Assembly: GCF_004010195.1 (NCBI RefSeq) | Contig: NC_057719.1 | Span: forward strand, 3,108,286-3,171,796 | Origin: Chiloscyllium plagiosum | Taxonomy: Eukaryota | Direction: 5' to 3' | DNA: 63,511 nucleotides | Shown: positions 1 to 63,000 of the stretch, piece after piece | Layout: the number at the start of each line of letters is the position of its first letter | How positions within the stretch are numbered: the first letter of the stretch is position 1 | Notes under the pieces: generated by a model | Told to the model about the DNA's origin: nothing | The model's input: the letters and a program-made list of their open reading frames with translations, nothing else | Databases searched by the model: none | Made by a program: the position numbers and the translations under genes

Positions 1-281
1 GCAATCTTCTTCCCAACCTCTCCGCCCCCACCCGCACTCCGACCTATCACCCTCACCTTAACCTCCTTCCACCTGTCGCATTCCCAATGTCCCTCCCTCA
101 AGTCCGTCCTCTCTACCTTTTATCTTAGCCTGCTTGGCACATCCTCCTCATTCGTGAAGAAGGGCTTATGCCCGAAACGTCGATTCTCCTTCTCCTTGGA
201 TGCTGCCTGACCTGCTGCGCTTTTCCAGCAACACATTTTTAAGCTCTGATCTCCAGCATCTGCAGTTCTCACTTTCTCCTA
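1..281 (+). mobile_element. 3' terminal fragment of a Penelope-like element with a degenerate hammerhead motif
   Basis: Same terminal module (GAAGGGCTTATGCCCGAAACGTCGATT...CCAGCATCTGCAG..CTCACTTTCTCC) that bounds the GIY-YIG-bearing element at 16058-17515. Confidence 0.7.
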
Positions 282-900
282 GCAATCAGGACAGCCTACC
301 CACCATGCTGCTTCCCTAACCACCCTTCACACCTTCTGGCCACCTCTAGGATAGCCCATCTCAGTACCCGCCTGGGGTGACAGCGCTGAGGACGGCCTGC
401 CTGCCTTCCAGCTCTCGGTCCGCCCTGACACAACTTCTGGACACCTCTAGGACAGCCCATCCCGGTACCTGCCCGGGGTGACAGCACTGAGGACGGGCTA
501 CCCGCCTTCTGGCTCTCGGTCTGCTCCTATGTACCATTGGGCTCTCACCCACCCCAATGCACCATCTGGCCTGTGGACTGCCCTGATACACCTTCCAGCC
601 ACCTCTAGGACAGCCCGTCCCCTTCCCCAGGGTCGACAGAGTACAGGGCAGACCACAAGCTTTCTGGATCTCAGCCTGCCCCTACCCACCTTCTGGCTTT
701 CGGCCGCTCAGACACACCTACCGACCACCTCTAGGACGGCACGTCCTGATTACCCCTTCTCAGGACGACAGCGCTCAGAACGGCCTACCCACGCTCTGGC
801 TCTCGGGGCAACCGCCATCAGGATGGCCTACTCACCGTCAGGTTCACAGGACGGCCTACCCTCCCTCCGGCTCTCAGGGTGACAGCTTTCAGGACGATCT
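282..900. repeat. Degenerate GC-rich tandem repeat with irregular ~100-160 bp units
   Basis: ACCTCTAGGA recurs near 342, 443, 601 and 727, each followed by GACAGC.CT.AGGACGGCCTACCC-like blocks. Confidence 0.6.
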
Positions 901-1574
901 ATGAGCCTCCCAGCTCACAGTGAGGCCTGCCTGACCCAGGGACACACGACAGTGCAGGTGGTAAACCCAACAAGCAACAAGACAGAGTCAATTATCAACA
1001 GTGTTCTTTCTAGTATAGAGCCCATTATCATAAACAATTCTCTTCAAAATATAGAGTATTCCCAGGAACAGAGTCCTCTCCAGTATAAAAAGTTAGAAAT
1101 GGAGTCCACTCCAAACTGCAGAGTGCATTGCAAAAACAGAGTCCACAACCGAGGGTGGAGTCCACTCCTGAAGGCAGCAAATACATACCCCACAGCAAAC
1201 TCACAGGTGTTCAGTCTCCATGGAGACCTGGTCCATCCACAAAGGACCAGGCCCACTCACAGGAACACTATAAAGTTGTAGTTAACACACAGGAGTTTAG
1301 TCCACTCCCGAAGGCAGCAAATGCTCACCTCCCAGCACACACACAGGTGTCCAGTCTCTCTGGAGGCCTAGTCACCCACAAAGGGTCAGGCTTACACACA
1401 CAGTAACAGCTCATCTGGAAAAGGCCTCAGTCCAAACACCAAACAAAAGTGAAAACACATTCAAAAAAAGAAGAAAGAAAACTAGAGTGCAGGGGCTAAC
1501 CCCTGCCATAAAATTAGCATAGTCCTTTTCTCAAGATAAAGGGAAAAAGAGTAACACACAAGCTGTAACCAGCC

Positions 1575-4072: not shown

Positions 4073-4235
4073 GGTGGCATGGTGGCTTAGTGCTGCTTCA
4101 CAAGTGCCAGGGACCCGGGATCCATCCAGCCTTGGGCAATATAGGGTAGGGGAATGGGCCTGGATGGGTTACTCTCCGGAGGGTTGGTGTGGACTTGTTG
4201 GGCTGAAGGGTCTGTTTCCACACTATAGGGATTCT
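4073..4235 (+). mobile_element. HE1-type SINE, internally deleted
   Basis: tRNA-like head GGTGGCATGGTGGCTTAG and 3' part GGACTTGTTGGGCTGAAGGG.CTGTTTCCACACT. Confidence 0.65.
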
Positions 4236-4284
4236 AATTCTAATAATGCAGATATGTATAATTTGCAGTCATTTCATTGTGCCG

Positions 4285-8168: not shown

Positions 8169-8251
8169 AAATGTGTTGCTGGAAAAGCGCAGCAGGTCAG
8201 GCAGAATCCAAGGAACAGGAGAATCAACGTTTCGGGCATAAGCCCTTCTTC
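8169..8251 (-). mobile_element. Short Penelope-like terminal fragment with 15-bp TSD
   Basis: Flanked by ATGAACATTTGCTAA at 8154-8168 and 8252-8266. Confidence 0.75.
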
Positions 8252-8479
8252 ATGAACATTTGCTAATCAACCAGGTCAGACCTGTCATTTCACACCCACA
8301 GAGCAGGTGGGACTTGAACACAGATGTCCTAGCTCAGAGGAGGGGACATTACCACTGCACCACAAGGCCCTCTGATTGGGAATATTGCTTAGTACCTGAG
8401 TTTTACCAAGTGCCCAGCCCTCTGTTTGTCACACAGTTGTATAGTTTATTCCCTCACCTAATTAAACTGGCTCAATTGA

Positions 8480-12464: not shown

Positions 12465-13190
12465 CATAGAATCTCTACATTATGGAAGCAGGTCATTTGG
12501 CCCATTGAGTCCATACCGATCATCTCATCGCCTCACCATATCCCTGCATTTTCCATTGCTAACCCACCTAATCTGCACATCCCTGAACACTATGGGCAAT
12601 GTAGCTTGGCCAATATAGGCGAAAGTGAGGACTGCAGATGCTAAAGGTCAGAGTCAAGATTAGAGTGGTGCTGCAAAACCACAGCAGGTCAGGCAGCATC
12701 TGAGGAGCAGTAAAATCGACATTTCGGGCAAAAGCCCTTCATCAGGAATGAGGCAGAGAGTCTCCGGGTTGGAGAGATAAGTGGGAGGGAAGTGGGGTTG
12801 GGGAGAAGGTAGTTAAGAGTGCAATAGATGGATGGAAGTTCAACCTCAGGGCATCAATGTGGACTTCACCAGTTTCCTAATTTCCCCTCTCCCCACCTTA
12901 TCCCAGTTCCAACCTTCCAGCTCAGCGCCGTCCAAGGGCTTTTGCCTGAAATGGCGATTTTCCTGCTCCTCGGATACTGCCTGACCTGCTGTGCTTTTCC
13001 AGCACCACTCTAATCTTGGCCAATATACCCTACCTGCACATCATTGGTCTGTGGGAGGAAACCAGAGTATTTGGAGGAAACCCACACAGACACGGGGAGA
13101 ATGTGCAAACTCCACACAGATTGAGGCAGGAATTGAACCTGGGTTCCTGCAGCAGTCAAACTGTTCTGCCTAACCACCTGACTGTTGTCC
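12465..13190 (-). mobile_element. HE1-type SINE split by an inverted-terminus Penelope-like insertion (12618-13014)
   Basis: TSD CTTGGCCAATATA at 12605-12617 and 13015-13027; SINE halves on either side. Confidence 0.8.
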
Positions 13191-13199
13191 CACATTTTA

Positions 13200-13680: not shown

Positions 13681-14589
13681 TTTTAATCAGGCCTTATGAA
13701 TAGAAGGATGGTAGTGGTGATTATAGTGATTATAGTGGAAACAAAAAACAGAAGTTAATGGAAAAGCTCAGCAGATCTGACAGCATCCGTGAAGAGAAGT
13801 CAAAGTTAATGTGTCGGGTCAAGTAACCCTTCCTCAGAACATTATAGTAGAATTTTATCCATTACAAATTCAGCCCAGGCTGGAAAATATTGGATAATTC
13901 TGGTCTCCACATTTCAGAAAAAATGTTAAAGCTTTCCAAGGTGAAGCGGTTTGTGAGGAATGAGGGATTCAGTTCTGAGGAAAATTCAGAAAAAAATAGG
14001 ATTAGTCTCCTTGAAACAGAGAAACTGTGACCTAATCACAGTTTTCAAGATGATGAGAAGCATTATACTATATAGAAGGGTCGTGACTACAGATGTGTCC
14101 AGTGAACTGTGAATTATACACCTCATTTAGCTCCTTCATTGTCAACTAAGTGCAAACTTGACGCTGTTATCAAATAAAATACAGACACAAAGATTAAAAT
14201 GTGACATGAATAAAAGACACTTCTAGCAATGGAAGTCAGATCAGACCACGATCAGAGTACACTTGGCTTGCTTGAAAACTTATCTTTGCAAAGGAATTAA
14301 AAATGCAAGGTCAGAGTTCACCAGCTGTGACAGCTTCTAAAGTTGAACAGTTGGAAGTTGGTTACCGAGATAGACCCCTTAAATGGAGCAGAATTTGAGT
14401 GAAGAGATGGTTTCTTGTTCTTCGTTTGCAGATTGCCCGGACTCCGGCTGCAGAACTCTGCGTTATTTCTTAAAGAACCGTTCCCTTTTAGCTCAGAACT
14501 CTCTTCTCTGAAGATGCTGCCTCCCAGAGACCTATCCTGGGGAGTTCCAGCTTTCCAAAAAAGGTTCACAGCAACATAAAAATCAAACA

Positions 14590-15860
14590 GAGAGTCATAG
14601 AGATGTACAGTGCAGAAATGGACCCTTCAGTCCAATTCTTCCATGCCAACCAGATATCTTAGTTAAATTGAGTCCCATTTGCCAGCATTTGGCCCATATC
14701 CCTCTAAACCTTTCCTATGCATATACCCATCAGATGTCTTTTAAATGTTGTCATTATCCCAGCCTCCACCAACTCCTCTGGCAGCTCATGCCACACACGC
14801 ACCTCTCTCTGTGTGAAAGAGTTGACCCTTAGGTCCCTTTTAAGTCTTTCCCCTCTCACCTTAAACCTATGCCTTCTAGATTGGAATTCATCCACCCCAG
14901 GGAAAAAAACCTTGTCTATTTACCCTATTCGTACCCCTCATGATTTTATAAACCTCTGTAAAGTCACCACTCAGCCTCTGATACTCCAGGGAAAATAGCT
15001 CCAGCCTATTCAGCCTCTCCCTCTAACTCAAACCCTCAAACCCTGGCAACATCCTTGTAAATCTTTTCTGAACCCTTTCAAGTTTTACAACATCCTTCCT
15101 ATAGCAAGGAAACCAGAACTGAACACAGTATTCCAAAAGTGGCCTAACCAATGTCCTGTATAAGCAGTAACATGATCTCTGAACTCCTCTACTCAATGCA
15201 CTGACCAATAAAGGCAAGCATACAAAATACCTTATAAAAGCAAATTACTGCGGACACTAGAATCTGAAACCAAAAGAGAAAATGCTGGAAAATCTCAGCA
15301 GGTCTGGCAGCATCTGGAAGGAGAGAAAAGAGCTGATGTTTTGAATCTAACTGACCCTTTGGAACGTCAGCTCTTTTCTCTCCTTACAGATACAAAATAC
15401 CTTCTTCACCATCTCATCTGGCAGTGAATCCACTTTCAAAGAACTATGAACCTTTGTTCAGCAACACTCCCAGGACCTTACCACTAAGTGTATAAGTCCT
15501 ACCCTGATTTGCTTTTCCAAAATGCAGCACCTCACATTTATCTAAATTAAACTCCATCCACCACTCCTCTGCCCATTGGCCCATCTGATCAAGGTACCAT
15601 TGTAATCTGAGGTAGCCTTCTTCGCTGTCCATTACACCTCCAATTTTGGTGTCATCTGCAAACTTATTAACCATACCTCCTATGTTCACATTGGAATCAT
15701 TTATGTAAATAGAAAAGCAGTGGACCCAGCACTGATCCTTGTGGCACACTGCTGGTCACAGGCCTCCAGTCTGAAAAGCAACCCTCCATCACCACCATCT
15801 TCTACCATCAAGCGAGTTTGTATCCAAATGGCCACGTCTCCCTCTATTCCATACATAAAT
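14590..15860 (-). mobile_element. CR1 LINE fragment with a nested short insertion (15234-15389, 14-bp TSD)
   Basis: FADDTK, FNLDKCEVLHFG and RPLLEYC motifs; ATACAAAATACCTT at 15220-15233 and 15390-15403. Confidence 0.9.
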
Positions 15861-16057: not shown

Positions 16058-17515
16058 AGGCAGAAGTGGGTACTGCGATGCTGGAGATTAGAGTCAAGAT
16101 TAGTGTGGTGCTGGAAAAGCACAGCAGGTCAGGCAGCATCCAAGGAGCAAGAAAATCATCATTTCAGGCAAAAGCCCTTCATCAGGAATGAACATACAAA
16201 CCAGCCTGCCTTTTGCTATTCAACTTTTGGCTGCCATTTTTTTATATGGAGTATTTCTCTTTCCAGCTTATCTCCTTCACTTCCTGTCCCACCGCCCTTG
16301 AACCCCACCCCTCCAACCGCAATAAGAATAGAACCTCAATGGTCCTCACCTTCCACCTCACCAACCTCTGGATACATTGCATCATCCTCCATCACTTTTG
16401 CCATCTACAAACAGACCCCACCACCAGGGATATATTTCTCTCCCACCCCTAACTGCAATCCAGAGAGACCATTCCCTCTATGACAGGAGTGGTTAGCACT
16501 GCTGCCTCGCAGCATCAGGGACCCAGGTTCGATTCCAGCCTCGGGCGACTGTCTGTTTGGAGTTTACACATTCTCCCCGTGTCTGTGTGGGTTTCCTACA
16601 AGTGCTCTAATTTCCTTCCATAATCCAAAGATGTGCAGGTTAGGTGAATTGACAATTCTAAATTGCCCATAGTGTTCAGGGATGTATAGGTTAGGTGCAT
16701 TAGTCAGGGGTAAATGTAGGGGAATGGGTCTGGGTGGGTTACTTTTCAGAGGGTCAATATGGACTTGTTGGGCTGAAGAGATTCACTGTAGGGATTCTTT
16801 GATTCTATGACTCCCTTGTCAGGTCCAGCCCCCCCCCCACCAAACCCAGCACTCCCAGAACCTTCCCCTGCCACGGCAGGAAATGCAAAACCTGTGCCCA
16901 CACCTCCCCCCTCAACTCCATCTAAGGCCCCAAAAGATTCTTCCACATCCGACAGAGATTTACCTGCACTTCCACACACGCCATGTACTGCATCAGTTGC
17001 ACACGATGTGTTCCCCTCTATTTTGGGGAGACAGGTTGCCAACTTGCAGATCGTTTCAGAGAACATCTCTGGGACACCCGCACCAACCAACCCCACTGCC
17101 CTGTGGCTGAACACTTCAACTCCCTCTCTCACTCTGCCAAGGACATGCAGGTCCTGGGCCTCCTCCACCGCCAAACTGTTACCACCCGGAGGAAGAACAC
17201 CTCATCTTCTGCCTTGGGACCCTCCAATCACACAGGATCAATGTGGATGTCACCAGTTTCAACCTTCCAACTCAGCACCGCCCTTGAACTGTCCATTTTC
17301 CTTCCCGCTTATCCGCTCCACCCTCCGCTCTGACCTATCACCTTCCCTTCCACCTTTATCTACCTATTGCATACACAGCTACCATCTCCCCCAGCCCAAT
17401 CCCCTCCCATTTATCTCTCAGTCCCCTTGGCCCATAAGTCCCCCAGCTGTTCTTTTCCAGCACCTCACTGTTTGACTCTGATCTCTAACATCTGCAGTCC
17501 TCACTTTCTCCTAGT
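16058..17515 (+). mobile_element. Penelope-like retroelement remnant with GIY-YIG endonuclease
   Basis: ORF 16983-17333 YCISCTRCVPLYFGETGCQLADRFREHL...VAEHFN; upstream NRTSMVLTFH...LQTDPTTRDIF; inverted terminal module at 16058-16190. Confidence 0.85.
16487..16810 (+). mobile_element. HE1-type SINE inserted in the Penelope-like element
   Basis: GTGGTTAGCACTGCTGCCTC...GGTTCGATTCC head and SINE body. Confidence 0.85.
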
Positions 17516-24858: not shown

Positions 24859-24859
24859 A

Positions 24860-27700
24860 TGAATGTTGGTGTTGTGTTTTTGGATGTTGAATTCATTCGG
24901 ATTAAACAGAGTGTGCCTTGTGTAGCAATGGCTCCTTCAGTCCCTCAGAGTTTCATTGGGGGTGGAAAAAGATCTCATTGAAGATAGTAAAGATAGTTTA
25001 CCACAGGGTACAATGGAAACCCAAGACGGGGTAGGAGAAGTAAAAAAAGTGCAGGTGTTTTCATTGCAATGAAGTAGGTTACATGAAGTCGCTGTGTTGG
25101 TGGTTTAGAAAAAGCACAGAGAAGACAGATACGCGAAAACGGGAAATGTCAGTGAATTTTCTTGAAGTGGTCGAGGGAAGCACAGTGGAAGCTAAAAAGC
25201 TGCAAAAGAATGTACAATCTGATCATGGGTTGGTGGAGAAGGGAGTACCAGATCTCTTTAAAGGATTTATTTGTGTGGGTAAGGTTTACTCATGTATGCA
25301 AGGGGAGCAGGTAAAGAAATTAAGATTTTAGGAGATACTCGAGCAAGTCAATCTTTGATGGTGACAGATGAGATATGAAATTTGGAAGGAAAATTGTCGG
25401 AAAATGTGGTATTATGGGGAATTCATGGTGAAAAGAGCAGTGTCATGGGTAGGAGTGCTGCCTCCTGTGGTTGAAAAGGCAGTGGAAAATCAGGCAACTG
25501 AGTTGCTATATAAAGTATATCTGGGATTTTCTTGACTGTGTGATAACAAAGTCACAAAGCCACTGGTTGGAAACAGGAGGAGAACTTTAAGAATAAAGAA
25601 AAGGAAGTTGAAGCTCAATTATCAAAGACCATGTTTGATCAAATGCTTCAGAGAAATTAGCTGAATTACAACAGAAAGATGAAAAACTAAAGCAGTTGCA
25701 TCAAAAAGTATACCCAGAACTGAGTGTATCCCAGAATGTTACTATCTTAAAAATGAATCTTAATGAGGAAATAGAGACCATCACATATTCAGGCAGATGA
25801 GAAATGGGCAGAAGTTTAACAACTTGTATTACCAGTGGGTTATAGAAAGGAGGTGTTGTAGGTAGCACGTGTACTACCAGTAGGAGATCATTTAGGGGGT
25901 AAGAAAAACTCAAGCTAAAATACAAAAACATTTTTACTGGCCTGAACTTTATAAGGACGTAATTGAATTTTGCTAGACATGTTATTTGTGCCAGGTAATT
26001 GGAAAACATCAGAGTGATAAAACCTGCACCTTTAATACCCATTCCTGCATTTGAGGAACCTTTCGCAAGTCTTAATTGCATAGGACCCCTGCATAAAACA
26101 AAAAGTGAGAATCAGTATCTGTTGACCATAATGGATGTGTCCTCGAGATTTCCAGAGGCCATTCCATGAGGCAGTATCATGGCTGAAAGAATTGGAGTGG
26201 AGTCACACATTTTTTTTACTAGATGACCCACTGGGATACAATCAGATCAAAGGTCAAATCTTACATCAAAGTTATTCAAGGAAGATGTGGAAAAGTTAGG
26301 AATAAAACAATTCTAATCCACTGTGCACCATCTATAATCGCAGGGAACATTAGAACGGTGGCATCAAACTTGAAAGACTATGTTGAGGGCTCATTGTCAG
26401 AGGATTGGAATAAAGGAATTCTGTTTTGTACTTTTTACAATTAGGGATGCACTTAATGAATCAACTAAATTCAGTCCACTAGATTTTGGGCATGAGGTGA
26501 AAGAACCATAAAAATTAATTAAGGAGAAATTGGTGAGCCAGAGCTCAGAGACCACATATTTGGACTATGTTTCAAATTTTAGGGAAAGATTAAATAGCGT
26601 GGGTGAGTTGGCAAGACAGCATTTTAAAATATCACAAGAAGCAGACAAGAAATCAAAAATTCGTAGTTTCGCTCGTGGAGATGAAGGGTTAGTGTTACTT
26701 TAATGATCAGTGGACCTTTAAAGGCAAGGTTTAGTGGACCTTATCAAATTGCAAAGAGACTGAGGTCAATTATTTGTTAAAAACGGCAGATAGAAAGAAA
26801 TCTCCCAGAATATGTCATGTGGACATGTTCAAAAGGTATTCTGACAGGGAAGGAAAGCCATAGGAGAATGTGTTACTGGTTACAACACAAAGTGAACAAC
26901 CAAGTTCAGATGATTCTGAATTGGACATACCTCAAATTAAATTGGACAATGAGGATGTTCTCAAAAATTGGGATGAATTGTTGAGTTACCTTCCAAAGAA
27001 AAATCGAAGTGACCTGAAAGAGTTATTATTTTCATATGGGAAGATATGTGAGAATAAGCTGGGAAGTACTAATCTGATTATGCATGATGCAGACACAGGA
27101 AATGCTGTTCCAATTAAGCAACACCCTTATAGACCTAACCCTCTAAACTTGATACACATTCAAAAAGAGATTGAATGCATCCTCGAAGACAATGTAATCT
27201 AAGTGAGTTATAGCAACTGGAGCTCACCCATAGTAATGTTGTCAAAACCAGATGGTACCCAATGGTAATGTGTGGACTATTGCAAAGTCAATGCAGTTAC
27301 AAAGTCTGATTCATATCCTATTTCACATTTGGACGATTGCATTGAGAAAGTGGGTTTTATCGGAAATTCAAACCAGGTTTTAGCAGCGTGGCTGCTCCAT
27401 TGACTGACTTATTGAAGAAGGTCACACAACACGCACTGCTCCAATAGCTAGTGTTCCCAAAAATACCTGTTGGACTATAACCTGGTGTTATGTGATTTTT
27501 AACTTTGTCCACCCCAATCCAACACTGGCACCTCCACATTATTGAAGACTTTCAGGGAACAGCGGACTGTCAGAAGGTATTTAACAGCCTGAAAGCTGTG
27601 TTAACCACTGCCTCAGTGTTAGCCACACCTAATTATAAAAGTCCATTCAAGGTGCTACATTTTTTATTCACCGGAGAGTATTGTTGTCCAGTCACTGGAA
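24860..27700 (+). mobile_element. Degenerate Gypsy LTR-retrotransposon internal region, Gmr1-like order gag-PR-INT-RT-(RH)
   Basis: CFHCNEVGYMKSLC knuckle (~25057), GDTRASQS protease (~25331), GHLG...HFYWP and YLLTIMDVSSRFPEAIP integrase (~25880-26170), FSGPY (~26730), PIKQHPYR/WSSPIV/CVDY RT (~27110-27350), AAPLTDLLKK connection region. Confidence 0.85.
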
Positions 27701-28672: not shown

Positions 28673-28974
28673 GAGCGAGAGATAAAGAGAGAGAGAGAGA
28701 GACAGAGAGAATGAGTCAGAAAGAATGAAATAGAGTGAAAATAAGTCAGAGATTGTGATAGACAGAATGAGTCAGAGAGACTCTGATAGAGAGAATGAGT
28801 CAGAAAGACTGTGATAGAGAGAATGAGTCAGAGAGACTGTGATAAAGAGTTCTGAGGAAGGGTCAGTCAGCCCAAAACATTAACTCTGATTTCTCACCAC
28901 AGATGCTCCAGTCCTGTTGAGCTGTTAAAGCAATTTCTCTTCTTATGTGTGATAGAGAGAATACCTCCGAGATA

Positions 28975-29755: not shown

Positions 29756-29975
29756 CTATTTTTCTACCCATGGGAATGAGTCAGAGTGAAAGTAAGTGTG
29801 AAATAGAGAATCAGAGTGAGAGACAGAAAAAGCCAAAGAGAGGGAGAGTGAAAGGGTGAGAGGAAAGATAGAGTGAAAGAGTGAAAATAAGTCAGAGTGA
29901 AAATGAACTGGAGAGAGTAATAGTGGTGCTGGAAGAGCACAGCAGTTCAGGCAGCATCCGAGGAGCAGTAAAATT

Positions 29976-30003
29976 GACGTTTCGGGCAAAAGCCCTTCGT
30001 CAG
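29976..30003 (-). ncRNA. Minimal hammerhead ribozyme motif
   Basis: CTGACGA-A-GGGC(TTTT)GCCC-GAAA-CGTC; differs from the + copy only at the variable N7 position. Confidence 0.7.
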
Positions 30004-30009
30004 GAATTC

Positions 30010-30037
30010 CTGATGAAGGGCTTTTGCCCGAAACGTC
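30010..30037 (+). ncRNA. Minimal hammerhead ribozyme motif
   Basis: CTGATGA-A-GGGC(TTTT)GCCC-GAAA-CGTC: core boxes, 4-bp stem II, palindromic ACGT helix III, GUC site. Confidence 0.7.
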
Positions 30038-30139
30038 GATTTTCCTGCTCCTCGGATGCTGCCTGAACTGCTGTGCTCTTCCAGCACACTAATCAAAAAT
30101 CGGTTTCCAGCATCTGCAGTCATTGTTTTTACCCTGGAG

Positions 30140-32680: not shown

Positions 32681-33228
32681 TTAACCAAAAAAAACCCACC
32701 TGGGTCATTAAAGTCGTTTAGGGAAGGAAACTGCCATCCCTACCTGGTCTGCTTTACATGTGACTCCAGACCCACAGCAATGTGGTTGACTCTTAGCTGC
32801 CCTCTGGGCAATTATGGATGGGCAATAAATGCTGGGTCTAGCCAGAGACGCCCACAATCCTGTGAGCAAATTATAAAAAAAAGCACTTTCGCTGTGGCCT
32901 AACCAATGCTTAATATAATTTCAGCATAACCTCCCAACTCAAACTCTATGCCTCAGCGAATAAAGTTGAAATCACACAACTCCAGGTTCTAGTCCAACAG
33001 GTTTATTTGGAAGTATAAACTTTCGGAATACTGCTCCTTCATCACCTGAACTTTGTCCACCCCTGTCCAATACCAGCTCCTCAAAATCAGTGAATATATG
33101 CAAACCAGACAGTTAGGTATAGGCCTGTAGCTTTCAAAGGTGTGAGGGCTACAGCAGTGAATGAGCAAGTCAGGGAGAAAATTGAGTGATATTCTGGTCT
33201 TCATGATAGTAGGGTTTTGTGATTAGAA

Positions 33229-33757
33229 TCTGGATTAGTGGTGCTGGAAGAGCACAGCAGTTCAGGCAGCATCCAAGGAGCTTCGAAATCGACGTTTTGG
33301 GCAAAAGCCCTTCATCAGGAATAAAGGCAGTGAGCCGGGAGCGTGGAGAGATAAGCTAGGGGAGGGTGGGGGGGGGGAGAAAGTAGCATAGNNNNNNGTT
33401 GAAGTGTTCCGAGGCAGAAGATGAGGCGTTCTTCCTCCAGGCGTCTGGTGGTGAGAGAGCGGCAGTGAGACCTGCCTATCTCCTTTTCCATCTATCCACT
33501 CCACCCTCGCCTCCCTGACCTATCACCTTCATCCCCTCCCCCACTCACCCATTGTACTCTATGCTACTTTCTCCCCACCCCCACCCTCCTCTAGCTTATC
33601 TCTCCACGCTCCAGGCTCACTGCCTTTATTCCTGATGAAGGGCTTTTGCCTGAAACGTCAATTTCAAAGCCCCTTGGATGCTGCCTGAACTGCTGTGCTC
33701 TTCCAGCACCACTAATCCAGAATCTGGTTTCCAGCATCTGCAGTCATTGTTTTTATC
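33229..33757. mobile_element. Penelope-like insertion with inverted termini
   Basis: Inverted arms ~33229-33390 and ~33560-33725; TTTTGTGATTAGAA at 33215-33228 and 33758-33771; hammerhead-like motif at 33632-33659. Confidence 0.85.
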
Positions 33758-37240: not shown

Positions 37241-37779
37241 AACCTCAATGTGGTTGACTCTTAATTGCCTTCTGGGTAATTAGGGATGGGCAATAAATGT
37301 TGGCTTAGCCAGTGACACCCGCATCCTATGAAACGTAGCTTGGAGTTGGGAATGGTAGATTTCAAGTTCAGTAGATTGAAGGGATGATATTTTGAGGACT
37401 ATGAGCTTCGAATTAGAAGTGTATTGTGGATTTATGAACTACAAATGCAGGAGATGGGTACAACATGGTTTGGGTTTGACTGGATTAGAGATAAAAGGAT
37501 GAGAAGTGAAGAGGGTCCTTTGTGCTTCTGAACAAAAGGTGAGTGTAGCTGGGTGGACTGCACTGGAACTAGACCCAATGGAATGGAAACTGACAGAACT
37601 GCAGATGCTGGAAACCAAACAAAAACAAAAATTGCTGCAAAAGCCCAGCAGGTCTGGCAGCATCTGTTGAGAGAAGTCAGAGTTAGCGTTTCGAGTCTGG
37701 ATGTGACTCTTCTTCAGAACAGAGAGAGGTAGAAATGTGATAGGTTACAGACAAAGACCCGAGAAGTAGCAGGCTATGA

Positions 37780-41407: not shown

Positions 41408-42460
41408 CGAGAGCAATAAAAATGTGAAACATTTGTCCAGACCAAGTTAGACCTGAAGACATAGGAGGTCATTCAACCCATTGATCCAGGCTGGTAAAGC
41501 ACATAAAAATGGAACCCAAATGGAGAACAGAGTCCACAGTAAGAAATTGTTGGACTCAATGTTGAGCCCTGAAGGCTGTAAATTGTCTGATTGGAAGATG
41601 AGATATTGCTTCTTTAGCTTGTATTGAGTCTTACTGCATCAAGCTGTAGACAGAAACTGTGGCCTGATGGTAGTTTGGAAAGTTGTGCAGAATGTGAGTG
41701 GTACCATAGAAATGCAGGTCATTCTGTCTAATTGAAGCCCTAAAAATGAGCCTGGAGGAATTTTGAAATGAACACCTTGATGAGACAGGAGAGAAGAAAT
41801 GAATGGTGATGGTATTTTTCTCAGATTTGTGGAAGAAGGCTGAAAGAAGGAACAAATTACTGCAGATGCTGGAATCAGGTTTGAAAAGAACAAATGCTGG
41901 AGATCACAGCGGGTCAGACAGCATCCACAGAGAGAGAGCAAGCTACTGTTTTGAGTCGAGATGACTCTAGATTCTAAACGTTAGCTTACTGTCCGTCGAT
42001 GCTGTCTGACCCGCTGTGATCTCCTGCATTTGTTGTTTTCAAACCTGATTCCACTTCTGAAGAAGAGTCATACCTCGGTCTCAAAACATTCTCTCTCTCT
42101 CTCTCTCTTTCTCTCCCTCTCTCCCCACTGTCTGACCTGCTGAATTTCTTCAGCCCTTTCTGTTTCTATTCAAGATTTCCAGCACCAACAATATTTTGCG
42201 TTTATAAACCTTCTTGCATCCTCATTGTCTGATTCAGGGGAGGTCATGCTGCAGTGCCAGTTTCTAAAAGAGAGTTTTCCATTAATTCCTTTTCCTAATT
42301 CTTTTGCCATAATCCTGCAAATGTTTCCTTTCCAATTATTTATCGAATTCCTGGTTTGAAAGTTTCTGTTTAATTAGCTTCCACTGCCCTTTCAGAAGGA
42401 TCATAGCAACTTGCTACAAAAATATAATTTCACCTCACCTGTCATTGTTTCTTTAGCTTG

Positions 42461-42672: not shown

Positions 42673-45075
42673 TCAGGGCTGACCAAGCCAGGCAATAGAT
42701 ACTAACTGCAGTTGGGAGAGGCTCTTGATGGTGCTGTTAATGTAATAATAGTGTACACAAGGCAAGTCCTGATGTTCTTGACTATTCAAAGAACTCAATT
42801 ATCTTTACTTAAGATGCAATGTGAATGCGAGGACTGTGTTAGATAGAGAGCATCTATGTAGAAGACCATGTCAATTTGCCAGCAGGGATCAGCCTTTTCC
42901 TTAAGTCTAACATGCCAGGACACTGGTGCAATGAGGAAGAATAACTGATGTCAGGCTGGTAGTGTAATGATAGAGGAGGCCACCAGACAAAGGCTTCTGC
43001 AAGAAGCTCCAACCAAAATCACCAATGATGATCTTGTGGTATCTATCCTGAACAACACAGAACAGAGTTGGCTTTTTCTGTTCCTGTGCAATCCTCCAAC
43101 TGACTGTCTTCAAATCTGGATTATGTCTGGATCAATTCTCTGCAGCTAACCTTGAAGGTTTTACATAAGAAGTGCAGAGGATTGCCCCAGGGAAGGAAGC
43201 GAAGAAATGGATAACCTGGATGCAAGCAAACAAGCAGGATGTTCACCCATTAAGATGGATATATCACAGACCCTGAGCACCACAATGAATTGTCTCACTT
43301 GTTATCTTTTCACAATTCAAACATGATTGGATTTGAGCAGTTTCTGAACACACAGCATTTCCTCTGACTTCATGAGCTTCCAACTTCATCATCCCGGTCT
43401 GGAACATTGATCTGTCTGATGGTCTCTCAGAGGATCCACTGACCAGAATGTCCACCATTGTCATTTTGCCAATTTCCTGCTCATTCAGTCAATGTCATGG
43501 AGCAGCCTCTCCTGCCCCCTGCCTTCCCCAACCTGTATAAACAACTCTTCTGTTCTACCACTGGACAGGCTCACGTGAACCCCTCCCCCCAAGGTGGATT
43601 GGGTCACATGGCTGGTTTAGATCATGTGGTCCTCTACCTCATCCAAGAAATGACTGACATGTGACTCCCAATTACAATTTAGGATGAAATGAAATGGAAG
43701 CACATTTTGTAAGGAACTCAATTTTCCCACTTTTAGAGCTTGTATTCTGTATGAAACATTCGCGCTATTGAAACAGGGATTTTGGTGAAACAAAGGATAA
43801 TGTTTAAATTTTAATTATTCACTCGATAGGTCTTGGGACTTAAAACTATTTAATGTTAAACCATCTTCCTAACACCATTAGTGATATTTAACCTTGTTTT
43901 GAATGAATGGCCTTTTCCCTCAAAGATAAACATAATTTAAGGTTGCTTAACTGTCTGATAAAACAATCCAGTGGTTTTAACTATGATATATCAGAGTGAT
44001 TACAGGACTTGCATTTATCCCAGTGCCTTAATCTTCATTAAAATGCCCTAGTATGTGTCAAGGGCCAAACACAGATGAAGACAGAGTTAGGTGAGATGAC
44101 ATACTCAAACAGCTAGGTCTCCTGTGGAGAGCTTCAAAACCAGGGGGATCGGTCATGAGAGGTGCTGGTAAAGCCCAAACATTCTGACATGTTTGCCTAA
44201 TGCAAATTCAATTAACTTCAGCAGATCAACTAACTCCACAAAGATCTACGCACATGATGCACCAAGGCTCCTCAGACAGCGCCTTCTAAATCCCCGGCTA
44301 CTTCCATCGAGAAGGACAAGGGCAGCAGATACATGGGAACACCACCCCCTGCATGTTCCCCTCCGAGCCACTCAGCATCCTGACTCGGAAATGTATCGCC
44401 GTTCCTTCAGTGTCACTGGGTCAGAATCCTGAAACTCTGTCCATGACTGGACTGTGGGTGAACCTGGACATGAACTGGACTCTGAATTTCAGGCCTCAGG
44501 CCTCTAACATAACAGTGCTCTCGCAAAGACAGAACTTTATGTTTATGTAACACTTTCAACCAGGAAAACATTAAAAAGCATTTTATGGAATCACAGAGTT
44601 GTTAAGATATAGGTGGATGTCATTCAGCCTATCATGGGCTCTCTGAATTAGACATTTCATTTATACTGTTGTTCTGCTGCCTTAGCTGTGGAACCCAGTC
44701 TATTCTTCTTTTACTGATTTCCTTTTGCAAGCCTCAGTTTCCCCTGCCTCCACCACACTGTCAGGCAGGGCATTCAGCCCAAGTGAATTTCTAGATGAAG
44801 AGTCACCTAGACTCTAAACATTAGCTTGCTCTCACTGCATGGATGCTGCCCGACCCGCTGTGATCTCCAGCATTTGTTGTTTTCAGTGATAAAATTACAA
44901 TGAATTTGAATACAAGTACTTGTTGGCAGTGATTGTGTATTTAGTGTGTTATTTAACTGGTTTGTGTTAAACCCATCTGTGAACTGTTTGAAGAAATTGC
45001 TTTCTTATCTATTCTCCAGTTTAGATACTTTCCTGAATGGTTCACACAATTAAAAGGGACATTTCCCTCTGCTTT
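42673..45075 (+). other. Probable TUNAR 3' UTR
   Basis: Largely unique sequence, AT-rich distally; candidate ATTAAA at 45049-45054 followed by a T-rich tract; the end point is a guess. Confidence 0.4.
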
Positions 45076-45899
45076 TTCTCCATCATCAATAGCTTGGCAT
45101 TTCTAGCTCAATCACTGGTAGCTCACTGTGTGAAAGACAATGTTTCTCACCACATCATTTTTGCTTCATTTGAAAACTAAATCAGTGTTGTCTCGTTTTC
45201 GTGAATGGGAACAATTTGTCCCTATTTACTCTGTCCGGGCCACTCATGACTTTATGAAGATTATGATCAGACAGAAATGACACAGCATGGGAGAGGGAGA
45301 TGAATGATAGTTTGGTTAGAGAGAGAGAGATTTGAAGGAATACCATAGGACATTTAGAGAGGTTCAGAGAAGAGATTTCAGACCTTAGGGCCCAGGCAGA
45401 TAAAGGCCAAGCCACTGATGGTGGAGGAAAGGCAATGGGAAATATTGCTTTTCATTATGTGCATGATTCATAAAGATATCTAAACTTGAAGATAAATAAG
45501 AAAGTAATTTCTTCAGTTCAAAGAGGGCTTTAACATAAACCAGTTAACAAACACACTCAATATACAACCACTGCAATCAAGTACTCAAATTCAAATTCAT
45601 TTCCATTTTATCAGGGGCTATAGGTTCCAGGAATGAGTAACTTGGCTCTATGAGGATAGATTGAAGACATTGGGACTGTTCCCCCTGGAGAGAGGAAGCT
45701 GAGAGGAGATTGATAGAAATTTACAAGATCATTGAGTGGCCTGGAGGGAGAAGCTGTCCCAACTTGTAAAGGAGGAAGGAGTGAGAGGGCGTACATTTAA
45801 AGTGATGTGGAACTGAAGCAAGGGTGATATGAGCAAAAAAAAACGTTTTCCCGTAGTGAGTTGTTAGGGTTCGGAATGTACTGCCTGGAAATGTAGTCA

Positions 45900-46235
45900 A
45901 AGTCAGACATCACACAACACCAGGCTATAGTCCAACAGGTCTTTTTGATATCACAAGCTTTCGGAGTGCTGCTCCTTCATCAGGTCCTGAGGAAGGGTCT
46001 CTGGACCTGAAATGTTAACTTTGATTTCTCTTCACAGATGCTGCCAGACAGACATGCTGAGCTTTTCCAGCAACTTCTGTTTTTGTTTCTGTTGGGCTAT
46101 AACCTGGTGTCGTGTGACTTCTGACTTCATACACTCTGAGGAACAGCCTTGCAAGTTTGTTCTGCTGTAGTGGGTGAAGATTACCGACACTTCTGACTTT
46201 GTGCACCCAGTCCAACACCGGCAACTCTACATCAT
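45900..46235. mobile_element. Composite of two Penelope-like terminal modules inserted in a CR1 fragment (45610-46420)
   Basis: Inverted CACACAACACCAGG.TATAGTCCAACA arms; hammerhead-like motifs at ~45956-45983 (-) and ~45987-46016 (+). Confidence 0.65.
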
Positions 46236-53940: not shown

Positions 53941-54544
53941 ATGTGTCACATTTTCTACGGAGAAAGAAAGAGTTAATATTTCAAGGCCAATATGACTTTT
54001 CTCCAGAACTGAGGAGTCAGGTTGAACTCAAAATATTAACCTAGTTTCTCCTCCCACATCCATTACCAGACCCGCAGAATTTCTCCAGCAATTTGAGTTT
54101 GTCAATATTTTTTATTGCTTTGGTAAGTTCATTTTGTGATATGGGAGCGGCGGAAGGGAATTGGATCTTGGATTTGCAGAAGCAAAATACTGTGGATGCT
54201 GAAGATCTGAAATAAAAGCAGACATTACTGGAGAAACTCAGCAGGACTGGTAGCATTTGTGAAGAGAGAAACTTCAGTTCCAAACAGTCATATTGGACTC
54301 AAAACATTAACTTTCTTCATCTTTCCACAGACACTGCCTGACCGACTGGGCTTCTCCAGCGCTTTCTGTTATTTATTTGAGGTTAACAAAGTCTTGCTTG
54401 ATTAAGGCATCTCTTACAAATCAAAACTCCTCTCAGGCTGAATTTAACAAATGGGCATATCTGGCCACCAACTTAGATAACAGACTGATTAAAACAGGCA
54501 AGCCCTTTGTCCTATTTCACACAGCAATGCCCACATGCAGCCAT

Positions 54545-55240
54545 GGTGTTGAGGAGCCGGGGTTGGACTGGGGTGGACAAGGTTAAAAATCACACAACAT
54601 CAGGTTATAGTCCAACAGGCACTAGCTTTCGGAGCACTGCTCCTTCATCATAGGACATAGAATTTATAGTCAAAGATCAAAATATCATACAATTAATGCG
54701 ATGTATTGAACAAACCTGGATTGCTGTTAAGTCTTTAATCACCTGGAATGAGGATGCCGGTTTCAATTAACCAATGTGTAAATCCCAAAATTTCTTTCAA
54801 TTCAACGCCCTGAGATAACTTAAGATTTTATCAGTTTCAAGGTGACATCTCAGCTCAGACAATGCATTAAAGGTGTGAGGTTAGAGTCTGTTTGTGTCCC
54901 AACCTGGAGTCAGAGTGGTTCTATTTCCAAAGTAGGAATTGATAAAATGTCACATGGACTGACTGCCGATAGATTGTGTTTTGAACAAAATAGGATGTAT
55001 CTGCTAATGCAAATCTGAAAATGCAAATTCACCCCATAGATGTACGTGTGCGTGTGCGTGTCTCTGTATGTCTGTGTGTCTTTATGTGTGTCTCTGTGTG
55101 TTTCTGTGTGTGTCAGTGGGTGTCTGTCTGTGTGTGTGCATGTGTGTGTGACTGTGTGTGTGTGTGTGTGTGTAGTGGAGGGAGCAGGTGGCAGTAGGGG
55201 GTGTGTAGTGAGGGAGAGGTTAAGTGTCTGTGTGTGAGAC
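54545..55240. mobile_element. Probable non-autonomous Penelope-related element ending in a TG-rich tract
   Basis: Terminal module GTTGGACTGGGGTGGACAA...TATAGTCCAACAGG...CTTTCGGAGC.CTGCTCCTTCATCA, shared with 27421-27540, 32965-33085 and 45900. Confidence 0.55.
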
Positions 55241-55419
55241 AGTGTTAAACAGATCAACTGAGGGTGGGCATAAAGGACCCCCACCTTCTCAAGAGGCAAC
55301 TGTGGATGGGCAATAAATGCTGGGCCCAGCCAGCGATGCCTATGTCCCTCAAATGAATATGAACAACAGCAAGAGTCAGAGAAGGGTATGCATTGACCTA
55401 CAGACTGGAAACAACAATA

Positions 55420-56280
55420 ACAGAAACAGTCCTGTCCACTCTGTAACGTTCTCCCCACTAACATCTGGGGGCTGGTCCCAACATTGGGAGAGCTGTCTCA
55501 CAGACTCGTCAAGCAACAGCCTGACATAGTCATACTCACAGGATTATACCTTACAGACAGTGTCCCAGACCCCACCATCACCATCCCTGGATATGTCCTG
55601 TCCCACCAGTTGGGCACATCCAACAGAAGTGGTGTCATGCTGGGATACAGTCAGGAGGGAGGGAGATGCTCTGGGAGGCCCCAGCATTGACTCTGGACCC
55701 CGTGATATCTCATGGTTTCAGGTTAAACATGAGCACGGAACCCTCCTGTTGGTTACCACGTACCATCCTCCCTCGGCTGATGAATCAGTACTCCTCCATG
55801 TTGAACAACACGTGAAGGAATCACTGAGAATGACAGGGGCACAAAATGTGCTCTAGGTGGGGGATTTCAATGTCCACCACCAAGAGTGGCTCTGCAGCAG
55901 CATTACTGATCGAGCTGGTCAGGTCCTAAAGGACATAGCTGCTAGATTGTGTCTGCTGCAGGTGGTGAGTGAACCAACAAGAGGGAGAAACATACTTGAC
56001 CTCATCCTTAGCAGTCTGCCAGCTGCAGATGCATCTGTCCATGACAGTATCGGTAAGAGTAAAAACAATGACTGCAGATGCTGGAAACCAGATTCTGGAT
56101 TAGTGGTGCTGGCAGAGCACAGCAATTCACAGCCTGTCATCGGATTTTGCCAGTCCTCGGATGCTGCCTGAATTGCTGTGCTCTTCCAGCACCACTGATC
56201 CAGTATTGGTAAAAGTGATCACCGCACAGTCCTTGAGGAGACAAAGTCCCACCTTCATACTGAGTCTATCCTCCATCAAA
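55420..56280 (+). mobile_element. LINE apurinic-endonuclease (APE) domain remnant with a short palindromic insertion (56061-56200)
   Basis: PDIVILT, IPGY, GDFNVHH, EPTRGRNILDLIL and SDH motifs; near-TSD CAGTAT(C/T)GGTAA(G/A)AGT at 56045-56060 and 56201-56216. Confidence 0.85.
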
Positions 56281-56757: not shown

Positions 56758-56869
56758 CAGTTCATGGTTCTATTCAATTCAGAAAATATCCAAATAATTC
56801 CATCTCTTCCAGCTTCCTTCACACAATCCTTAAACATACATTTGTATTCCAGACAACATGGAGGTACAG

Positions 56870-59069: not shown

Positions 59070-59880
59070 TAGGACCAAGCGGAGGCCAATCGGCCCCTTG
59101 AGCTTGCTACGCCTCTCAGTAGGATCATGGCAGATCCAATATTCCTCACATCCTCTCTCCTGGCCTTTCCCTGTAACCCTTGATTCCCCGACTGATCAAG
59201 AATCTCTCTCTCTCAGCCTTAAATACAGACAAGGACTCTGCCCCCACAGCTCTCTGTGGTAAGGAGTTCCAAAGACTCACAACCCTCTGAGGGATGAAAT
59301 TCCTCCTCATCTCAGTCTTAAATTGGTGCCCCTTTATTCTGAGACTGTGCCCTCTGGTCCTAGACTCTCCCATGAGGGGGAACATCCTCTCAGCATTTAC
59401 CCTGTCAAGCTCCTTAAGGATCTGATGTGTTTCAGTGAGATCACCTCTCATTCTTCTCAACTCCAGTGAGTACAGTCCCAACCTGTTTTTACCTTTGTTC
59501 AGAAGACAATTCCTCCATACCAGAGACCATCCTAGTGAACCTTCTCAGAACTGTCTCCAATGAAATGATAACTTGCCTTAAATAAGGGGCCTGTGACTGC
59601 TCCAGATGTGCTTTTCCCAGTCCCTTGTACAGCTACAGCAAGACGTTCCTACTCATATATACTCCAACCCTCTTGAAATAAGGACAAACATTCCATTAGC
59701 CTTCCCGATTTCCTTCTGCACACTGTATGCTAGCTGTCCATGCTTTGCAAATCTCAAATAAATTAATCAGATACGATTTCCTTTTCATGAACTCAAGCTG
59801 ACTTTGCGTGATTAGATTATGATTTTTCAATGATGCTGCTGTTACTTCCTTGGAAACTGATTCCAACATTTTCCCAACAA
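59070..59880 (-). mobile_element. CR1 fragment
   Basis: ORF 59146-59481 RRMRGDLTE...RGHSLRI...WNSLP. Confidence 0.85.
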
Positions 59881-60074
59881 TCCATAATCAGCCGAGAGCT
59901 TATTAACCTCTCTCCCTTTTTGAGTAGGGCTGTCAGTCAGTCCTCAGTCAGGTCAGAGGAGTAAGGGCAGCTTTGCTCAGGAACAGCAAGCCAAGGGCAG
60001 TCTCTGATACCAGGGGCTCGGACACAGACAGTCAGACACTCACATGAGGGGCTTCTTTGGCCTCTAATTGAGGC

Positions 60075-63000
60075 ATAGGGCCATACAGCACGGAAACAGA
60101 CCCTTCGGTTCAACCAGTCCATGCCAACCATATTCCCACCTAAACTAATCCCACCTGCCTGCTCTTGGCCCATATCCCTCCAAACCTTTCCTATTCATGA
60201 ACTTATCCAAATGCCTTTTAAATGTTGTAACTGTACCGCATCCACCACTTCCTTTGGCAGTTTGTTCCACACACTAACCACTCTCTGTGTCCCTCATGTC
60301 CTTTTAAAATCCTTCTCCTGTCATCTTAAACTTTGCTCTTTAGTTTTGAACTTGTCCCACCCTAAGGAATAGATCAGTGTCATTCACCTTATCTATACCC
60401 CTCATGATTTTATAAACCTCTATAAGTTCACTCCTCAACCTCCTACACTCCAGTGAAACAAGTCCCAGCTTTCAATCTATTTTTATATCTCAAACCCTCC
60501 ATTCCTGACAACATCCTACTAAATCTTTTCTGAACTCTCTCTTGTTTAATAATATCACAAGACCATCAGACATAGGAGCAGAAATTAGGCCATTCAGCCC
60601 ATTGAATCTGCTGATTTAATCATGGCTGATAAGTTTCCCAACCCCATTCTCCCACTCTCTCCCCGTAACCTCGGATCTACTTGATACTCAATAACCTTTC
60701 TACCTCAGTCTTAAATATACTCAATGACCTGGCCTCCACAGCCTTCTGTGGCAGTGAGTTCCACAGATTCCTGACTCTCTGGCTGAAGAAGTTTCTCCTT
60801 CTCTCCGTTTTAAAATGTTTTCCCTTTACTCTAAGGCTGTGCCCTTGTGTCCTCGACTCTCCTACCAACAGAAACATCTTCCCAATGTCCACTCTGTCCA
60901 CGTCATTCAGTATTCTGTATGTTTCATTTAGATCCCCCTCATCCTTCTAAACTTCTTCGAGTACAGACCCAGAGTCCTCAAACGTTCCTCATATGTTAAG
61001 CTTTTTATTCCTGGGACCATTCTCGTGAACCTCCTCTGAACATGCTCCAGGGCCAGTACATCCTTCCTGAGATATAGGGCCCAAACAAGCGCACTATACT
61101 CCAAATGTGATCTGCAAAATCACAGCAGGTCTGGCAGCATTCCTGATGGAGGGTTAATGCCCGAAACATCGATTCTCCTGCTCCTCGGATGCTGCCTGAC
61201 CAGCTGTGCTTTTCCAGCACCACGCTCTTGTCTCTGATCTCCAGCATCTGCAGTCCTCACTTTCTACAAATGTGGTCTGAGCAGAGCCTTATAGAGCCTC
61301 AGAAGTACATTCCTGCTTTTATTTTCAATTCCTCTCAAAATAAATGCCATCATTGCATTTGCCCTCTTAACTACTGACTCAACCTGCAAGTTTACCCTGA
61401 GAGAATCCTGGACGAGAATTCCCAAGTCCCTTTGCACTTAAGAATTCTGAATTTTCTCTCCATGACTCTCTCTCTCTCTCCATGCTTCTATTCTTCCTAC
61501 CAAAGTGCATGACCTCACCCTTTCCCACATTGTACTCCATCTGCCACTTCTTTGCCCACCCTCCTAAACTGTCCAAATCCTTCTACAGCCTCCCTACCTC
61601 CTCAATGCTACCTGTCCCTCCACCGATCTTTATATCATTGCAAACTTAGCCAGAATGCCTTCAGTTCCTTCATCTAGATCATTAATGTATAAAGTGAAAC
61701 GTTGTGGTCCCAACACTGAGTCTTACGGAACGCACTTGTCACCGGCTACCATCCTGAGAAGGACCCTTTTATCCTCACTCTCTGCTTCCTGCTTTTATCC
61801 TTCCCCTAGTGGGGTGACCAGAACTGGACACAGTACTCCAGAAGAGGTCTCATTGATATCCTGTACAACCTCAACGTGACATCCTAACTCGCTGTACTCA
61901 AAGGTCAGAGCAATGAAGGCCAGATTGCCAAATGTCCTCTCGACATGTGACACAAATTTCAAAGAATTATGTACCTGAACCCCTACGTCTCTCTGTTCTA
62001 CAACATTACCCAGGGCCCTACTATTAACAGTATAAGTCCTGCTTTTGTTTATTTTACCAAAATGCAGCACCTCACATTTTTCCAAACTAAACTCCATTTG
62101 CCACTCCTCAGCCCATTGACCAAGATCCCTTTGTAATTTTAGATAACTTTCCTCACTGTCCACCATGCCATCCGCAAAGTTACTAACCATACCTCCTAAC
62201 CTTTCATCCAAATGGTGAGGAGTGAAATATCAGGCAGCTGCCTTGACCCTTTATGCCAATTGTGGACTGTTACCCTCCTGGAATAAGAGAGAGAGAGAGT
62301 CATAGTGATGTGCAGCACTAAAACAGACCCTTCAGTCCAACTCGTCCATGCTGACCAGGTATCCTAACCTAATCTAGATTAGATTACTTATAGTGTGGAA
62401 ACAGTGCCTTCAAATCCACACCGGCCCTCCGTAGAGCAACCCACCCAGACCCATTCCCCTACACCTAACACTACGCCTAACCTGCACATTTTTGAATTGT
62501 GGGAGGAAACTGGAGCACCCGGAGGAAACCCACGCAGACACGGGGAGAATGTGCAAACTCCACACAGAAAGTTGCCTGAGGCGGGAATTGAACCCGGGTC
62601 TCTGGCGCTGTGAGGCAGCAGTGCTAACCACTGTGCCACCGTGCCGCCCACTAATCCCATTTGACAGCACCCGTGTGCTTATCCCTCCAAACGCTTCCTA
62701 TTCATATACCCATCCAGATGCCTTTTAAATGTTGTAATTATACCAGCCTCCACCACTTCCTCTGGCAGCTCATTCTATACATGCACCACCCTCTGCGTTA
62801 AAATGTTGCTCTTTAGGTCCCTTTTAAATCTTTCCCCTCTCACCTAAATATATGCCCTTGAGTTCTAGACTCTCCCACCTCAGGGAGAAAAATATCTTTG
62901 TCTATTTACCCTATCCATGCCCCTCATGATTTTATAAACCTCTATGAGGTCACCCCTCAGCCTCTGATGCTCCAGGGAAAACAGCCCCAGCCTATTCAAC

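Follow-up and report, generated by a model that had tools for sequence, protein, structure and literature searches.

Minimal type I hammerhead motifs, probably carried on end-pieces of Penelope-like elements, in a 63,511-nucleotide stretch of the Chiloscyllium plagiosum genome

The minimal hammerhead ribozyme (min-HHR) of Penelope-like elements (PLEs), with its extra A, its palindrome and its thousands of solo copies per genome, was set out by Cervera and de la Pena in 2014 (PMC4209133), and the model in which minimal hammerheads act as dimers has been reviewed (PMC6765202 and PMC6155905). PLE-derived hammerhead repeats have been reported in one chondrichthyan (10.64898/2026.07.22.740005), and Penelope is listed in the whale shark (PMC8455134). 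Cartilaginous fishes are not named in the text sections available from PMC4209133 or in one file of its supplement, and a literature search that left most subscription papers, Repbase and Dfam outside its scope returned no report on shark PLE hammerheads. Here we analyzed 63,511 nucleotides of the Chiloscyllium plagiosum genome (contig NC_057719.1, positions 3,108,286 to 3,171,796; hereafter the window, in whose coordinates all positions are given). It very probably holds minimal type I hammerheads on end-pieces of PLEs, inserted singly as short, mostly damaged and likely inert copies.

Ribozyme positions follow the usual hammerhead numbering (C3, A9, G10.1, G12, N17 and so on). The window was scanned for CTGANGA and GAAA linked through a stem II of four or more Watson-Crick pairs, and 12 dinucleotide shuffles of the window served as the control. 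Six exact cores were found, compared with none in every one of the shuffles; allowing up to one mismatch gave 11 cores against a shuffle mean of 0.42, and an extra A after A9 was present in all 11 matches. The set was widened by BLAST with the motifs and by a covariance model trained on 17 copies, a search that the sequence-only reading of this DNA had proposed; the model returned 22 matches at E ≤ 1, including the 17 training copies, and its match at 45495 was rejected as a probable chance match. In total, 21 largely complete minimal type I hammerhead motifs were counted, plus about 10 partial ones, a density of about 21 per 62 kb; more than a dozen had been claimed before. By stem II they fall into family A (GGGC/GCCC, 11 motifs), family B (GGAG/CTCC, 3), family C (GAGTC/GACTC type, 4) and family D (GGGT/ACCC type, 3). 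The window itself is repeat-rich vertebrate DNA, 46% of which matched a second time inside it. Pattern scans of viral contigs gave no match, and pattern matches at 11 metagenome and 7 prokaryote loci, which had no BLAST similarity to the window, were dismissed as chance. The motif class is confirmed as real and far above chance.

Twenty copies, aligned on C3 and G12 and not including the later-found one at 53963-54012, were used to tabulate the pairing of the helices. Helix II was paired in 79 of 80 cells, and its pairs 10.2, 10.3 and 10.4 changed on both sides between families, while G10.1 was invariant and the extra A after A9 occurred in all 20 copies. All four families shared the same majority letter at 12 of 13 core positions, compared with 1 of 20 tail positions; in families A, C and D it was the expected core letter at every core position, and in family B, whose majority letters were confirmed by sequencing reads, C3 was kept in one of the three window copies. 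An alignment of the 22 model matches had 81.6% of its cells paired, a level reached by none of 500 shuffles and compared with 12-57% in slid controls, although an alignment fitted by the model leans towards structure. The palindrome 15.2-16.2, which leaves no loop III, is ACGT in families A, C and D and AGCT in family B; it pairs in 14 of the 20 copies, and of the six failures five, in families A, C and D, are transitions of the CA or GT type at CpG sites or comparable decay. A helix I, which the sequence-only reading had passed over, is apparent but short, at 2 bp for family A, 3 bp for B and 3-4 bp for C and D. It opens with a C-G pair in families A and B and with U-A in the other two, and its first, second and third cells were paired in 14, 17 and 5 of the 20 copies, respectively. 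In family B, 606 RNA reads depart from the window copy at 33044, and the CAC that their consensus places upstream of C3 is the complement of the majority GUG that follows the cleavage site; in family C, CAGTT precedes the core in two copies. Cleavage is predicted after GUC in family A, CUA or CUU in B and GUU in C and D. An Rfam search of the window found no hammerhead family among 20 matches (E up to 5), as would be expected if the repeats resembled the ribozyme by chance. Such a resemblance is, however, scarcely credible, and is refuted as to motif identity, since the two unrelated groups of tails have one and the same core with covarying stems, and every trait fits the published min-HHR consensus. 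The Rfam miRNA matches at 15309-15394 and 29953-30059 were below gathering scores and arise from fold-back pairs.

These results bear out most of what the sequence-only reading had claimed for the motif: a recurring core with different yet pairing stem II sequences, T, C, A or G at N7 (all four letters were seen), a palindrome switching between ACGT and AGCT, a core better conserved than its flanks across families, and a dimer-type architecture at very high density. Its named coordinates were correct to within a base (12744 becomes 12745, and 54650 becomes 54651, where C3 reads A) except for 44800, which marks stem II of a broken-core copy with its C3-equivalent at about 44792 and with G12 reading T. 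The full pattern that it had written down is present in three of its ten named motifs (30010, 30003 and 45983) and, only if a G.U wobble in the palindrome is allowed, in 12745 and 45987; the other five (12153, 13837, 37717, 44800 and 54651) are broken.

The proposed link to PLEs was upheld directly in family A, which is contiguous with PLE open reading frame (ORF) remnants at three places (the 16270-17266 region, 12838-12894 and 33390-33476). The remnant at 16058-17513, made up of the end of a reverse transcriptase and a GIY-YIG part, is 66% identical to protein P0001 over 122 amino acids, has 2,376 relatives at E ≤ 0.001 and a best protein relative annotated as Chiloscyllium punctatum (bamboo shark), and carries a CX4CxxC linker before the GIY-YIG region. 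The full-length relatives P0072 and P0120 gave RVT_1 and GIY-YIG matches that were weak and below cut-offs. Because a CX2-5CxxC linker before the endonuclease is a mark of the Neptune clade (PMC8557442), we label the family A element Neptune-type. Families A, C and D have homologous tails (local scores of 46-96, compared with shuffled maxima of at most 34), whereas the family B tail is unrelated to them (14-19, inside the shuffle range). The four lineages proposed earlier thus stand as four stem-II variants and reduce to two unrelated groups by their tails. Carriage by PLEs, which is evident for family A, is likely for B, C and D.

Some further observations concern the carriers. The Penelope ORF remnant is interrupted at 16488-16807 by a SINE-like repeat that matches up to five other places in the window. 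At 41525-41641 (-) there is a weak match to the C-terminus of a PLE ORF of another family, with no hammerhead linked downstream. The segment at 54655-55250, upstream of a family B copy, ends in a CA/TG microsatellite and may be the 3' untranslated region (UTR) of B; an ORF match was not found in it. The A/C/D tails (e.g., 37660-37690 (-) and 12670-12700 (-)) contain a splice-acceptor-like CTGAC, a pyrimidine run and CAG, followed in C/D tails by an ATG, and in family C a CAG directly precedes helix I (54012 (-) and 54276 (+)), which recalls the Drosophila virilis intron ending at helix I.

The units bear the marks of separate insertions. A target-duplication score of at least 9 was obtained at 10 of 22 units, compared with 4.75% of 400 random pairs, and the duplications of family A units measure 9-15 bp. 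The 3' ends of family A are bimodal, at about +84-87 and +123-128 from C3 and thus about 40 nt apart, and all four duplication-bounded A-A head-to-head pairs consist of one long and one short arm. Such an optional tail with an inverted copy has been described in PLEs (PMC8557442 and PMC3846280) and explained by two internal starts of reverse transcription (PMC11167929). Same-strand hammerheads are spaced at least 273 nt apart, the nearest pairs being of different families or broken, and tandem units each with a complete hammerhead, which define retrozymes, were absent from the window. We propose that the ribozyme was likely selected for in the source elements, in which the 4-nt palindrome would let two copies join to form helix III and cut. 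The genomic copies would derive from target-primed reverse transcription starting inside the RNA at either of two sites about 40 nt apart, thus giving a short or a long tail, and priming of both target strands would give a head-to-head pair inside one target duplication. As the copies span the cleavage site, their template was likely uncleaved RNA. After insertion, they would decay neutrally, fastest at three CpGs inside the ribozyme.

Thirty-four 5' ends were mapped by hand, and 16 lay at -6..+1 of C3; among the others, 11 fell within or beyond the ribozyme, one at about -60 and six at upstream distances of over 60 nt. Tested on 28 ends with a uniform null spanning -60..+80, the pile-up had a corrected p of about 3e-12, a value to be read with an interval picked after the ends had been viewed and with some C/D ends that have no anchoring duplication. 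Cleavage does not account for this pile-up, since it would place the ends at position 1.1 (about +28) and not at -6..+1, and only one junction (56115/56183) was near the cleavage site; a structural roadblock fits poorly too, since the reverse transcriptase would reach the fold from its 3' side. Over 32940-33391, DNA contigs from two organisms (X1 and X13) were mapped. Just 5' of helix I, summed contig depth fell from 5.1e6 to 1.6e6 (X1) and from 6.1e6 to 1.4e6 (X13), a drop to which upstream UTRs that diverge among subfamilies, as well as a mismatch private to this copy at 33323, also contribute; such sums (5e6 versus a flank depth of 11.8) are not copy numbers. Contigs departing at 33322 with long mixed flanks numbered 726 and 714, and inverted joints occurred at 33321-33322.

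RNA data came from one run of a single-cell, 3'-primed poly(A) library, about 2% of which was read, with 3,256 reads mapped. Family B reads ran approximately 10:1 in the sense of the ribozyme, and their depth did not change across the scissile bond (1167 before it and 1167 after), as in uncut transcripts; mixed letters at several read positions indicated that several family B copies contribute. Poly-T occurred in 767 reads at 32990; this position follows AATAAA by 12-13 nt, is 27 nt beyond the cleavage site and has a GU-rich stretch downstream of it. Because a 27-nt cut product would be lost in such a library, the reads prove that uncut RNA exists, not that cutting is absent. Of the four family B copies that the window contains, only one keeps AATAAA. 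RNA starts did not pile up in this 3'-primed run. For the segment 44500-46400, a look-up listed no RNA run that contains it. Family B copies may serve host genes as terminators.

Both the 5' pile-up and the poly(A) site could be read as signs of a strong-stop mechanism, which would refine rather than replace the explanation given above and which we consider doubtful. Element RNA would begin 3-6 nt before C3, and reverse transcription from inside the tail would run off at its 5' end, so that most genomic copies would be run-off products; longer copies would need a jump to a hammerhead repeat at the RNA 3' end, closed in family B by the poly(A) site that lies 27 nt beyond the scissile bond. By analogy with the retroviral R-U5, the stretch from ribozyme to poly(A) would be the terminal repeat R, the tail U5 and the approximately 130-bp copies failed first-strand jumps, a scheme that probably does not hold. 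The 16 of 34 ends at -6..+1, the single junction near the cleavage site, the fall in contig depth with its exits at 33322 and inverted joints, the 767 poly-T reads, and the internal reverse-transcription starts demonstrated for an anole PLE (PMC11167929) all agree with it. However, the ends were mapped by hand in an interval chosen afterwards, the depth drop has the other sources named above, the poly(A) reads may derive from host genes that use a B copy as terminator, RNA starts showed no pile-up (albeit in a 3'-primed library), and in D. virilis the start site is not at helix I but precedes it by 46 nt plus a 75-nt intron (PMC2377424 with PMC4209133). In the literature covered by our search, neither a strong-stop model nor a poly(A) signal beside PLE hammerheads was reported. 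If the mechanism did operate, approximately 130-bp hammerhead copies in shark genomes might number 10^5 or more, family B would scatter working poly(A) sites, and the hammerhead would mark a strand-transfer repeat rather than cut the template. The same pile-up, together with uniform copy lengths, would also be expected of non-autonomous, SINE-like families of hammerhead-plus-tail units that have short masters of their own and are mobilized by PLE proteins, and non-autonomous PLE-derived hammerhead repeats have been described in vertebrates (10.64898/2026.07.22.740005). This origin is quite unlikely, as the same family A subfamilies also occur with a long upstream UTR and ORF (12745, 33318/33632 and 16270-17513), the 5' ends spread over 8 nt instead of sharing one base, and the window holds no tandem arrays, unlike retrozymes.

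In agreement with the earlier view that most copies are mutated and probably inactive, only 3 of the 21 motifs (12745, 30010 and 45983) retain every core base together with the palindrome and a helix I of 2 bp or more. None of the three forms a tandem with another intact copy; for 12745, the closest partner on the same strand is 12153, 592 nt away, with a broken palindrome. Copy 30010 is locked in a predicted hairpin with its inverted partner (-176.7 kcal/mol, z -23), which leaves helix II a probability of 0 in context, and the helix I probability was 0 for all three copies in a 300-nt fold context. In family A, private non-CpG changes were equally frequent in core (3/109) and tail (17/506, p = 1.0), and 14 of 66 CpG cells differed. 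All differences together were rarer in the core (3/109 versus 44/506 in the tail, p = 0.044), because shared subfamily changes avoid it. This pattern of changes likely reflects selection on the source elements followed by neutral decay after insertion. The copies are likely inert where they now sit. The three intact copies, in which every core base is kept, might be taken for ribozymes that the host uses to cut a local transcript. That is highly improbable, given the hairpin around 30010, the broken partner of 12745 and the lack of helix I in all three predicted folds; moreover, because core and tail decay equally, 3 intact motifs in 21 need no selection. Fold-back pairs, if transcribed, would form long double-stranded RNA.

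Several results weigh against our interpretation of the motifs as PLE-borne hammerheads. The covariation comprises very few independent events, with four families only, and helix I of family A has just 2 bp before a U.U mismatch. In a two-strand fold of 30010, the double hammerhead reached -18.9 kcal/mol, a sum that excluded helix I, compared with a minimum of -28.0 kcal/mol; since the double-hammerhead pairing is not the energy minimum, intact units may need a protein. The reverse transcriptase and GIY-YIG Pfam scores of the ORF relatives were mostly under curated cut-offs. No ORF was linked to family B, C or D within the window, and the PLE status of these families is drawn from architecture and, in C and D, also from tail homology to A. 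Against easy activity of the source elements stand the low dimer activity reported in PMC4209133 and the cleavage only with protein in PMC11167929.

The features are collected in Table 1. At 45899-46235 they form a nested stack, in which a family D copy lies head-to-head at CCTG of a family B pair and a second insert of about 60 bp in the same B tail has an 11-bp direct repeat on its flanks. A single-event chimeric origin of the B/D junction at 45983/45987 was ruled out, since D interrupts a B tail. The C/D copies 15361 (-) and 54276 (+) have CCAAA in place of the core, which may stem from a fold-back junction or mark a subfamily in which U4 has changed. Elsewhere, a high-copy short tandem array surrounds a 500-N gap at 21864-24860 (self-BLAST depth 51-88), and CR1-like LINE reverse transcriptase fragments dominate the window, e.g., 17906-18940 (-) (RVT_1, E 1e-35).

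Table 1. Hammerhead-bearing units and related features of the window
Feature	Position	Strand	Remarks
Family A hammerhead, C3 reads G	148..193	+	About 60 nt of element 3' UTR upstream; long tail to ~280
Family A copy, begins inside core	8169..8253	-	Short tail; 15-bp target-site duplication
Family A copy, begins at C3	12028..12154	-	Long tail; 13-bp duplication; palindrome broken
Family A head-to-head pair	12617..13015	.	One 13-bp duplication around both arms
Minus arm of 12617..13015	12745	-	Hammerhead intact save G.U wobble; long tail
Plus arm of 12617..13015	~12928	+	PLE ORF end 12838-12894, core-deleted hammerhead, short tail
Family D copy	13740..13840	-	C3 at 13837; A14 reads C; 12-bp duplication, 1 mismatch
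Family D fold-back pair, partial hammerhead	15247..15394	.	16-bp duplication, 1 mismatch
5'-truncated, broken Neptune-type PLE	16058..17513	.	Inverted family A hammerhead at 16185 (-)
ORF remnants of 16058..17513	16270-16470, 16809-17266	+	CX4CxxC linker, GIY-YIG region; SINE-like insert between
3' part of 16058..17513			3' UTR, then family A tail with hammerhead deleted
Family B copy	27422..27538	+	Without 5' half of hammerhead; 10-bp duplication
Family D copy	28849..28944	+	C3 at 28852; G12 reads A; 12-bp duplication, 1 mismatch
Family A head-to-head pair	29917..30133	.	Joined at -4 of both copies; 9-bp duplication
Arms of 29917..30133	30010 (+), 30003 (-)		30010 fully intact, long tail; 30003 short tail; folds as one long hairpin
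Family A copy, begins ~C3	31928..32056	-	Long tail; 9-bp duplication, 1 mismatch
Family B copy, from U4	32966..33045	-	AATAAA 33007-33002; reads with poly(A) at 32990
Family A head-to-head pair	33231..33757	.	16-bp duplication, 1 mismatch; PLE ORF end 33390-33476 (-)
Arms of 33231..33757	33318 (-), 33632 (+)		33318 G12 reads A, short tail; 33632 long tail
Family C copy	37595..37720	-	C3 at 37717; U16.1 reads C
Family C fold-back pair, partial hammerheads	41850..42200	.	Then another C copy, 42057 (+), G12 reads A
Family C copy, core broken	44790..44885	+	
Family B copy	45899..45985	-	Hammerhead 45983 intact, with a 2-bp helix I
Family D copy, C3 at 45987	45986..46088	+	Nested head-to-head within family B pair
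Family C copy, A6 reads G	53963..54012	-	In fold-back pair; found only by covariance model
Family C fold-back pair, partial hammerheads	54178..54378	.	
Family B copy, C3 lost	54545..54651	-	Apparent internal deletion
Family A head-to-head tails, one long and one short	56057..56200	.	Joined near cleavage site; 12-bp duplication, 1 mismatch
Family A copy, begins at -5	61138..61266	+	A9 reads G; long tail; preceded by inverted C/D-type tail scrap

The motif class is already known, and the motif alone adds a new host group and an unusually high density. What the window offers beyond this is many dated insertions with target duplications, with which the unsolved replication cycle of PLEs becomes testable from genome data alone. 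Should the 5' ends truly be concentrated at helix I, and polyadenylation of family B RNA occur just past the cleavage site, the place where the ribozyme acts would be constrained, and the two together would argue that cut RNA is not the template.

Compared with the PLE min-HHRs of PMC4209133, the motifs share the type I core, the extra nucleotide between 9 and 10.1, the G10.1-C11.1 pair, the palindromic 15.2-16.2 and the lack of a loop III, as well as the occurrence of several covarying families in one genome, mostly solo, with close opposite-strand pairs. They differ in a helix II of 4-5 bp, compared with 7-8 bp in the Schistosoma families, and in the 2-bp helix I of family A; their density, if the window is typical, is far above that of the approximately 4,000 copies in coelacanth and 9,000 in Xenopus given there. 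With the Neptune clade (PMC8557442) and the Adineta Penelopes (PMC3846280) the elements share 5' truncation, an inverted 5' copy, an optional 30-40-bp tail on one arm and the CX2-5CxxC before GIY-YIG. Unlike those elements, they have no full-length PLE ORF in the window, and their target duplications reach 13-16 bp, compared with about 8-10 bp; the available portions of the two papers make no mention of a 5'-end pile-up at the 5' edge of the ribozyme. The Poseidon element PAc of Anolis (Frangieh et al. 2024, PMC11167929) likewise has two 3' ends, which bound a tail lying roughly 85-130 nt past the hammerhead start, copies from uncleaved RNA and no RNA-seq reads ending at the cleavage site. PAc, however, belongs to the Poseidon clade and its ORF starts inside the hammerhead, whereas the family A element is Neptune-type by the linker in its sequence. 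Non-LTR retrozymes (PMC7229834 and 10.64898/2026.07.22.740005) are similarly non-coding and PLE-derived and carry a type I hammerhead; they are tandem units each with a ribozyme, whereas the copies here are solo or head-to-head with a target duplication of their own.

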